64,000 nucleotides of DNA. Origin: an uncultured Nitrososphaeraceae archaeon. GTDB lineage: Archaea > Thermoproteota > Nitrososphaeria > Nitrososphaerales > Nitrososphaeraceae. Both the position numbers and the translations under genes were made by a program. The notes beneath the pieces are model-generated. The model saw only the letters and a program-made list of their open reading frames with translations. It searched no databases and was not told the origin of the DNA. The stretch is from assembly GCA_963837175.1 (NCBI GenBank), contig CAWIMJ010000016.1:64001-128000 (forward strand), written 5' to 3'. This document shows, one piece after another, positions 7,818-61,492 of the stretch (the stretch's first letter is position 1; each line of letters begins with the position of its first letter).

Positions 7818-8205
7818 TGCAAAGAATGAGATCATATTGTTATTATAACTAATTATGTAGAATGATTTCACTCTGACATTTATTTATTAATCGCTGAAGA
7901 ATTTTTTAATCTCAAATAAAAAAAATCCTTTTTTTACTCATATTACTCTTTCTCTCTCGTCCAACGGCTGATCAGTCTTTTGTTTGAAGAACCTAAAATA
8001 ATCACTCATTTTTTTAATATTTTATGGCATAGATACTTGTTTTTGATCTTTCTAATTGAAACTAGAAGCTTATCACAAATAATAAAGAGATATGGTTGAT
8101 AGGGAATACTCTATAATATTCATCCTGTAAACTTCTAATCGAATAGATATATATGTATATATATAGTAGAGATGAAAATTTAGAGTTTTCTTCTTGGGTC
8201 TTAAG

Positions 8206-8290
8206 TGCGGGAGATGGGATTTGAACCCACGAACCCCTAAGGGATAAGAGCCTCAGTCTTACGCCTTTGGCCAAGCTGGGCGACTCCCGC
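8206..8290 (-). tRNA. tRNA-Leu(GAG)
   Basis: Reverse complement folds as a cloverleaf: GCGGGAG/CTCCCGC acceptor stem, TAAGA-CT-GAG-GC-TCTTA anticodon arm, long variable arm, GGTTCAAATCC T-loop. Confidence 0.96.
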
Positions 8291-21930: not shown

Positions 21931-22004
21931 GGGCCGGTCGTCTAGTCCGGTAGGATACGGCATTGGCATTGCTGAGGTCGTGGGTTCGAATCCCACCCGG
22001 TCCA
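21931..22004 (+). tRNA. tRNA-Ala(GGC)
   Basis: GGGCCGG/CCGGTCC acceptor stem with G3:U70, CGGCA-TT-GGC-AT-TGCTG anticodon arm, GGTTCGAATCC T-loop. Confidence 0.96.
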
Positions 22005-61205: not shown

Positions 61206-61261
61206 AACAAACCATGCGTAACATTCTAAAGATAGTAAATTATACGAAAAATACGCCCGGA

Positions 61262-61352
61262 AGCCCGGTAGAGTAATGAATTCGCCGAATGTAGTGGCCA
61301 AGCATAGAGGCCTTTGGAGCCTTTGACCCCAGTTCGAATCTGGGCCGGGCTA
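61262..61352 (+). tRNA. tRNA-Gln(TTG) with an 18-nt non-canonical intron (61272-61289, position 10/11)
   Basis: Removing 61272-61289 gives a 73-nt cloverleaf: AGCCCGG/CCGGGCT, D-stem GTGT/GCAT, GAGGC-CT-TTG-GA-GCCTT, CCCAG-TTCGAAT-CTGGG. The junctions form a bulge-helix-bulge. Confidence 0.9.
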
Positions 61353-61492
61353 GGTTTTGTTTATAAACAATACACTAGATTATTTATTCTCTTTATTTTT
61401 GATAACCAAATATAAGATACATATTACTCGATGCAAATTAGTAAATTCTTTGCAAATGTCTATCTATCTTGGATTTGTTATCTTTATTAGGA

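Follow-up and report, generated by a model that had tools for sequence, protein, structure and literature searches.

The tRNA-Gln(UUG) locus and its intron

The window studied here is a 64,000-nt stretch of the genome of an uncultured Nitrososphaeraceae archaeon (GenBank assembly GCA_963837175.1, contig CAWIMJ010000016.1, positions 64,001 to 128,000 of the forward strand). At 61262-61352 it carries a genuine tRNA-Gln(UUG) gene that is split by an intron close to its 5′ end and preceded by a copy of the 5′ strand of its own acceptor stem. We call this upstream copy the decoy, and an intron between nucleotides 10 and 11 of the tRNA a 10/11 intron. The gene is flanked by a DUF354 gene and an argininosuccinate-lyase-like gene with 1 kb between them, and its parts are listed in Table 1. 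Exon 1 and the intron are followed by TGTAG..., and the sequence runs through to CCGGGCTA (61345-52). The motif GCCCGG stands twice at the locus, in the leader and again at 61263-61268 within exon 1, and its complement CCGGGC lies at 61345-61350. Counted on both strands of the window it occurs seven times, three of them at this locus; the mean for dinucleotide shuffles is 3.8 per window.

Table 1. Features of the tRNA-Gln(UUG) locus, in window coordinates. A1 lies at 61262, G10 at 61271, U11 at 61290, U72 at 61351 and A73 at 61352.
Feature	Position	Strand	Basis or remark
Putative TATA-like promoter box (TTCTAAAG; TTATAAAG in relatives)	61224..61231	+	conserved in same-family orthologues
Leader decoy GCCCGG, copy of acceptor nt 2-7, complement of nt 66-71	61255..61260	+	sequence; conservation
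Spacer (A) from decoy to nt 1; expected RNase P site 3′ of the spacer	61261	+	
Exon 1, tRNA nt 1-10 (AGCCCGGTAG)	61262..61271	+	pairs with 61345-61351 in a perfect 7-bp acceptor stem
Exon strand of the central 4-bp splicing helix, C5 G6 G7 U8	61266..61269	+	partner 61284-61287
Non-canonical intron, 18 nt (AGTAATGAATTCGCCGAA), between nt 10 and 11	61272..61289	+	missing at exactly the same junction in intronless orthologues
Intron-side strand (GCCG) of the central helix; the 3′ bulge AAU (cut after AA) comes next	61284..61287	+	variants in relatives all pair with nt 5-8
Exon 2, nt 11-73, anticodon TTG at 61314-61316	61290..61352	+	ARAGORN, Rfam, in-silico splicing
3′ acceptor strand CCGGGCT, nt 66-72, for which the decoy and the true 5′ strand compete	61345..61351	+	RNAfold alternatives
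T-rich tract (TTTTGTTT), likely archaeal terminator	61355..61362	+	sequence only

Excision of the intron leaves 73 nt that ARAGORN reads whole as tRNA-Gln(ttg), a cloverleaf with a 7-bp acceptor stem (AGCCCGG/CCGGGCT). The first 16 nt of this spliced form are identical to those of intronless orthologues, and the same holds for all other spliced forms. Left unspliced, the gene is misread by the tools used here. ARAGORN places a tRNA-Gln(ttg) at 61279-61352, bounds that we rejected because of their poor acceptor stem, and the Rfam tRNA model (RF00005) matches over model positions 9-63 only, at 34.8 bits. The leader copy was also considered as the real exon 1 and rejected, since GCCCGG follows a variable base (C, T, G or A) and no nucleotides 8-10 come after it. 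A first-pass annotation of the window had described an 18-nt insert interrupting the D-stem right after G10, a leader GCCCGG that repeats acceptor nucleotides 2-7 and is complementary to CCGGGC, and a gene likely to be missed by tRNA scanners. All of this was borne out; the start it gave for the feature, 61254, lies one base ahead of the repeat, while its elements stand.

The intron forms a motif of the bulge-helix-bulge (BHB) kind with exon 1. The pairing of exon CGGU with intron GCCG that had been described is found in the sequence as C5-G, G6-C, G7-C and U8.G, together with both 3-nt bulges, AGA and AAU. Cutting after the second nucleotide of each bulge would give the 73-nt cloverleaf called whole above and a junction identical to that of intronless orthologues. 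Because three of nucleotides 5-8 belong to the acceptor stem, the motif and that stem are, as judged from their pairing, mutually exclusive. Motif classes (hBHBh′, HBh′ and relaxed) follow the definition in a preprint (10.64898/2026.10.13.758758). The strict hBHBh′ form has a flanking exon helix h of at least two pairs, and the genes studied here offer at most C4-G12, which is invariant in UUG genes and impossible in CUG and Glu genes, where nucleotide 12 is C or A. By its pairing the motif is thus of the HBh′/relaxed kind rather than a full hBHBh′. The single G-C pairs that the first-pass annotation had closing each side of the motif are both possible in the window; the outer one is absent from CUG and Glu genes and the inner helix is weak.

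The motif is conserved well beyond the window. Searches with the locus found orthologues in 38 of 41 relatives, in 263 of the class's 301 genomes and in ten genomes belonging to other orders; no claim made here depends on the unpublished genomes G151, G243 and G294. An initial MAFFT alignment (A1) placed no gaps in the leader, so that decoys with spacers of 2-3 nt fell out of register. A covariance model (R1) was built on the alternative structure, and pairing counts come from the re-alignment to it (A2; 98 genes, 94 distinct sequences); being fitted to the model, they lean towards its structure. With that bias, 99.5% of the cells of the central helix are paired, and one genome (G038) shows a compensatory change. 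The introns all lie at the same junction and range from 14 to 68 nt across orthologues, and their 3′ ends (GCCG, ACCG, GCTG, GTCG, GCCA, GCGG or ACTG, plus two bulge bases) each pair with nucleotides 5-8. Within the intron, an internal helix shows both-side changes at all four of its pairs in the same alignment and has 2-9 contiguous pairs in 105 of 112 introns, the flanking intron helix h′ being defined by at least two; most relatives have 3-9.

The position of the intron had been thought unusual. That view should be moderated: this intron is widespread, and non-canonical introns are well known in this group and are modelled by tRNAscan-SE 2.0 (PMC8450103). The 10/11 intron itself may already be annotated in reference genomes.

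Association of the decoy with 10/11 introns

Decoys accompany 10/11 introns. We compiled 160 distinct tRNA-Gln gene sequences (loci L001-L178; one, L168, had been mis-sorted as intronless and was corrected by reading) and scored a decoy as strong if at least six contiguous pairs between leader and 3′ acceptor strand lay within 15 nt of nucleotide 1. Strong decoys precede 107 of the 112 genes with a 10/11 intron (85 UUG, 27 CUG) and 2 of the 48 without one. By database labels, intron and decoy occur together in UUG genes of 39 genera and 11 families and in CUG genes of 20 genera and 6 families. On the sequence comparison, the presence of a leader copy at 10/11 introns is not chance.

The association also holds at finer scale. 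Intronless Gln genes of one family (f13) have only decayed decoy remnants, such as ACCGGC in L085, and, within a single family, the CUG gene of genus g15 (L137) has neither intron nor decoy. Gln genes with introns at other D-loop sites (L102, L105) lack a decoy. Among 36 tRNA-like candidates in the window's genome, a G+C-rich decoy precedes the two Gln genes only, and the other intron-bearing tRNAs go without. The second of these genes, tRNA-Gln(CUG) on another contig (C10:20209-20357, + strand, 149 nt; L118/L119), has the decoy AGCCCG 13 nt upstream and three introns, one of 33 nt at 10/11, one of about 24 nt in the D-loop and one of 19 nt after nucleotide 38; it was detected neither by ARAGORN nor by Rfam at E<=1. 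A within-genus contrast in g37 (L059 versus L170) is not relied on, as the flanks differ and it may be a binning artefact.

A search of 151 genomes of the phylum with R1 found the same Gln arrangement in other classes (families f31, f38 and f57). This search is biased because it scores the leader helix, and its loci were kept out of the count above; they include intron and decoy together in L182-L186, L189 and L195, and decoy-like stretches before the intronless L191 and L197.

The R1 search also first revealed tRNA-Glu genes with a 10/11 intron and leaders that copy the Glu strand GCTCCGG. As R1 scores the leader, the search was repeated, as an independent test, in 401 genomes with a leader-free pattern made of exon 1, the intron end and exon 2 only. 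This returned 17 tRNA-Glu genes with a 10/11 intron in 16 genomes. All 17 have a copy of their own strand upstream (GCTCCGG in 15, GCTCCG in 2), at spacers of 1-18 nt; in L209 and L210 the arrangement is GCTCCGG-TG-GCTCCGGTCG. The controls were Glu-type genes lacking the intron, the first 30 loci from 151 genomes. None has such a copy, the four longest matches being six-base stretches with two or three G.U pairs each.

The substitutions in the decoy are those of a pairing strand. The leader helix is paired with the 3′ strand in 97% of cells across the 94 distinct sequences; unpaired cells number at most 4 of 94 at any one pair and 17 in all. Changes are almost all C-to-U opposite G, giving 39 U.G cells (19, 13 and 7 at three positions). 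The flanks and spacer vary freely, the flanks having diverged fully while the decoy has been kept across several classes, and spacers range from 1-3 nt in UUG genes to 1-18 nt in CUG and Glu genes, their sequence varying too. CUG decoys of the family read AGCCCG, AGCCTG, AGCTCG, AGCTTG or AGTCCG, each pairing with nucleotides 67-72. The only both-side change in the leader helix, G-C to C-G, is found in G038, whose UUG and CUG genes alike combine the acceptor AGCCCCG/CGGGGCT with the leader GCCCCG and the intron end GCGG. The first-pass annotation had asked whether intron GCCG and leader GCCCGG are conserved and covary with the acceptor stem; they do so in Gln UUG and CUG genes and in tRNA-Glu, in several classes.

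Individual loci show variations of their own. The intronless tRNA-Gln(UUG) gene L115 (G108, family f26) has GGCCCGGTGG directly ahead of AGCCCGGTGG, a 9-nt tandem copy of exon 1, perhaps what is left of a decoy arrangement or a forerunner of one. L146 (G035, family f12) is a CUG gene lacking the 10/11 intron with AGTCTGG one base upstream; this stretch forms seven pairs with the 3′ strand, including two G.U, and the intron may have been lost recently. In L063 and L066 (genus g38) the leader reads GGCCGG-TCAA-GCCGGC, and the shortened decoy could form its own hairpin upstream of the tRNA. The 10/11 intron has grown to 59-68 nt in L073, L090 and L091 (family f9, genus g26), with its ends, the central helix and the decoy retained. 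A second intron of about 19-20 nt near nucleotides 25-27, ending CTTGA(A/G)TA, occurs in the tRNA-Gln(UUG) genes L029/L100, L030/L103, L097, L098 and L099; L097 has a third after the anticodon. Finally, L019, on a 2-kb contig of a genome labelled as the window's genus (G004; 72% complete, 3% contamination), resembles the Gln loci of genus g15 (L049, L053) more than those of the genus it is assigned to, and the contig may be mis-binned.

Predicted folding, transcription and processing of the precursor

The decoy changes the predicted fold of the precursor. In the RNAfold minimum free energy (MFE) structure of 61240-61365, the leader is paired to the 3′ strand and CGGU to GCCG; once the leader is removed, the ordinary acceptor stem forms. 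Among 74 UUG precursors, the central helix has a probability above 0.5 in 42 when the leader is present, in 3 when it is absent and in 2 when the decoy is replaced by A. The corresponding numbers for CUG precursors are 2, 0 and 0 of 24. In constrained ensembles, the state combining decoy and splicing helix lies below the acceptor state in 64 of 83 UUG genes. For transcripts that end before the 3′ strand, the median central-helix probability is 0.44, a value probably explained by a 4-bp CCGG/CCGG hairpin between leader and exon.

The decoy is also predicted to lie at the very 5′ end of the transcript. In 106 intron-bearing genes the A+T content peaks at -24 to -30 from the first decoy base, and in 48 intronless genes at -26 to -32 from nucleotide 1; the base before the decoy is usually a pyrimidine. 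The centre of an archaeal TATA box usually lies near -26/-27 from the start. This spacing leads us to predict transcription start at the first base of the decoy, and the RNA-type substitution pattern likewise points to a decoy that is transcribed. No start-site map was found in the literature searched. Machinery for such processing is present: the window's genome encodes two paralogous splicing endonucleases (183 and 207 aa) that both contain the N- and the C-terminal domain, as well as an archaeal RNase P RNA (174 bits). The two-subunit endonuclease of this group cuts relaxed motifs (PMC4090602; PMC5829648).

The pairing data and folds fit a sequence of events in which exon 1 and the intron would form the splicing hairpin immediately upon their transcription. 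The emerging 3′ acceptor strand would then pair with the leader decoy rather than displace the hairpin. The two-subunit endonuclease would cut between G10 and A and between A and U11, and a ligase would join the exons. Nucleotides 5-8, freed of their intron partner, would retake the 3′ strand to give a 7-bp stem continuous with the restored D-arm, after which RNase P would remove decoy and spacer. The part of this scheme that we hold likely is that the leader holds the 3′ acceptor strand and so lets exon nucleotides 5-8 form the splicing helix. The first-pass annotation had proposed the leader as a surrogate acceptor strand, and conservation, covariation, the tRNA-Glu test and the MFE folds with and without the leader support it. 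We further infer that the decoy is transcribed, that the precursor is cleaved in vivo, that the steps follow this order and that splicing needs the decoy to be efficient.

Several observations weigh against this scheme. Despite the leader, the central helix stays below 0.5 in 32 of 74 UUG and 22 of 24 CUG precursors, and the combined decoy and splicing-helix state is favoured in only 7 of 26 CUG genes. When UUG genes are spliced in silico and keep their leader, nearest-neighbour energies favour the true acceptor in 9 of 83 and not in the other 74. Since these energies mostly do not favour the true acceptor after splicing, the return switch would need tertiary structure or irreversible cleavage by RNase P. 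The window's own intron has one of the weakest internal helices, a single contiguous G-C pair, a U.U mismatch and an A-U. Some genes break the association: the two intronless genes with a strong decoy are L115 and L146, and five intron-bearing genes have a weak or displaced one (bulged in L010; shortened in L063, L066 and L067; distant in L132). As the sequences are related, the raw counts overstate their independence. The predicted start sits at the edge of the decoy, and a start 2-4 nt downstream would truncate it. RNA-library contigs do not help either. Six runs were listed, each with a small share of words from the locus, and the contigs of X15, X16, X17 and X19 were examined. There is one per run, all unspliced and showing no joints or ends, which makes them uninformative on splicing or start; the X15 contig includes the promoter region, and the other three resemble the window from 61255 to 61352 only.

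Taken together, equilibrium secondary-structure energies describe two states of similar stability and no clean switch, so that their support is partial. A kinetic reading can be proposed. The hairpin would form first, the decoy would deny the 3′ strand a foothold, and RNase P would make the return irreversible.

Alternative roles, known systems and wider meaning

The decoy might pair with the 3′ strand for another purpose, namely timing or quality control, by keeping RNase P, the CCA-adding enzyme or the synthetase off the unspliced precursor, or by shielding the 3′ end, up to the removal of the intron. We consider this unlikely, though it is the strongest of the alternatives. The pairing evidence is the same for both roles, and the decoy often lowers the probability of the acceptor stem without raising that of the splicing helix (L016, L031, L094, L141); with the decoy at the predicted 5′ end, the decoy helix would also leave RNase P nothing to cut. 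However, such a role gives no account of the restriction of decoys to introns that need acceptor nucleotides (L102, L105 and the genome's other intron-bearing tRNAs have none), and it does not exclude a part in folding.

That the leader copy is a functionless scar of the origin of the intron or gene, for instance of a tandem duplication of the 5′ end, is suggested by the fact that decoy and true strand are direct repeats and often adjacent, as in the 9-nt tandem copy of L115 (GCCCGGTGG), which has no intron, and the GCTCCGG-TG-GCTCCGG of L209 and L210. We think it very improbable, because a neutral scar would not be kept across several classes while its flanks diverged fully, change almost only from C to U opposite G, track the acceptor in G038 and tRNA-Glu, and decay where the intron is absent. 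A signal at the DNA level, for example an initiator element or a site bound by a protein, would suit the placement of GCCCGG at the predicted transcription start behind what is usually a pyrimidine, but scarcely any weight can be given to it when the sequence changes with the host tRNA (GCCCGG, GCCCCG, AGCYCG, GCTCCGG) and always matches that tRNA's own 3′ strand, the distance to nucleotide 1 ranges from 1 to 18 nt, and intronless genes of the same genomes have no decoy. Equally hard to credit is a partner other than the 3′ strand, that is, exon 1 with its CCGG palindrome or intron GCCG: GCCCGG-A-AGCCCGG can indeed form a 4-bp CCGG/CCGG hairpin, but neither pairing survives in G038 (GCCCCG) or in CUG genes (AGCTCG, AGCCTG, AGTCCG), which keep only the pairing to nucleotides 67-71 of the 3′ strand, and a central helix built with the leader would place the cut in the spacer.

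The reading of the leader as a stand-in acceptor strand can be set beside several known systems. The intron itself resembles the non-canonical BHB introns of Crenarchaeota and Thaumarchaeota, which are processed by an (alpha-beta)2 endonuclease, in being short, lying outside the anticodon loop and forming a 4-bp central helix with four exon nucleotides (PMC4090602, PMC8450103). Further likenesses are the two 3-nt bulges that hold the cut sites, the helix inside the intron and the two endonuclease paralogues. What sets it apart is the competition between its motif and the acceptor stem, and a second conserved cis element that goes with it. Split and permuted tRNAs (Nanoarchaeum, Caldivirga, Thermofilum, Cyanidioschyzon) also use sequences outside the mature tRNA that pair for endonuclease processing (PMC4090602, PMC4033280). 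In those cases leader and trailer form the BHB themselves and are cut off by the endonuclease, whereas here the leader lies outside the motif and removal by RNase P is proposed. The present gene is colinear, with no leader and trailer building the motif, and its leader pairs with the mature 3′ acceptor strand. Attenuators and riboswitches, with their anti-terminator and anti-anti-terminator logic, are alike in that one strand has two alternative partners and the choice of helix sets the next processing step, but here there is no ligand, ribosome or terminator, and the proposed trigger is removal of the intron.

Closer to the acceptor end, leader bases that pair with the 3′ end of a pre-tRNA change how that end is presented to RNase P and affect its choice of site, and in one study the spacer was altered to avoid pairing between A-1 and position 73 (PMC3378863). 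Such pairs are one or a few and fortuitous, extending the stem, whereas the copy described here, of 6-7 nt, takes the place of the entire 5′ strand and has been conserved along with the intron. In the literature searched, including passages of PMC4090602, PMC8450103, PMC4033280, PMC3218864, PMC3728597, PMC12397907, PMC3378863 and 10.64898/2026.10.13.758758, we found no description of a leader acting as an acceptor strand, and an earlier mention in older papers, supplements or GtRNAdb is possible.

Other tRNA genes were seen along the way. The window holds two intact ones, Leu(GAG) at 8205-8290 (- strand) and Ala(GGC) at 21931-22004 (+ strand), both recognised by ARAGORN and Rfam. Elsewhere in the genome, C17:49700-49860 (- strand) carries a tRNA with the anticodon loop CTCCTAA (read as Arg-CCT) and a D-loop intron of about 30 nt, which Rfam matches over model positions 9-63 only, the pattern seen for the Gln gene. 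ARAGORN run with introns lists 38 tRNAs for the genome, several of them doubtful (a Glu with an 891-nt "intron", a Tyr(ata) and a "Stop" tRNA at a contig end). Several expected tRNAs are missing from that list, which suggests that non-canonical introns conceal further genes.

Catalogues of archaeal tRNA introns at odd positions go back twenty years, and, as far as our searches show, the literature has not explained how a splicing motif forms in competition with the strongest helix of the tRNA. On balance we lean, if modestly, towards a class of cis-acting "acceptor-strand decoys" at pre-tRNA 5′ ends, present in several classes of the phylum, that would free acceptor nucleotides for the splicing motif and impose the order of splicing, refolding and RNase P cleavage, a strand-exchange switch reset by removal of the intron. 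Such decoys may arise by tandem duplication of the 5′ end of a gene, and may be what allows 10/11 introns to persist in tRNA-Gln and tRNA-Glu. Where the acceptor sequence changes the decoy follows, and the introns it goes with are exactly the ones in need of acceptor nucleotides. The model makes testable predictions on the order of pre-tRNA processing and would set a constraint on where introns can persist. In practical terms, the decoy could guide gene finders to tRNA-Gln and tRNA-Glu genes that are now mis-called. If the model is true, protein-catalysed tRNA splicing would gain its first described cis-acting folding helper.
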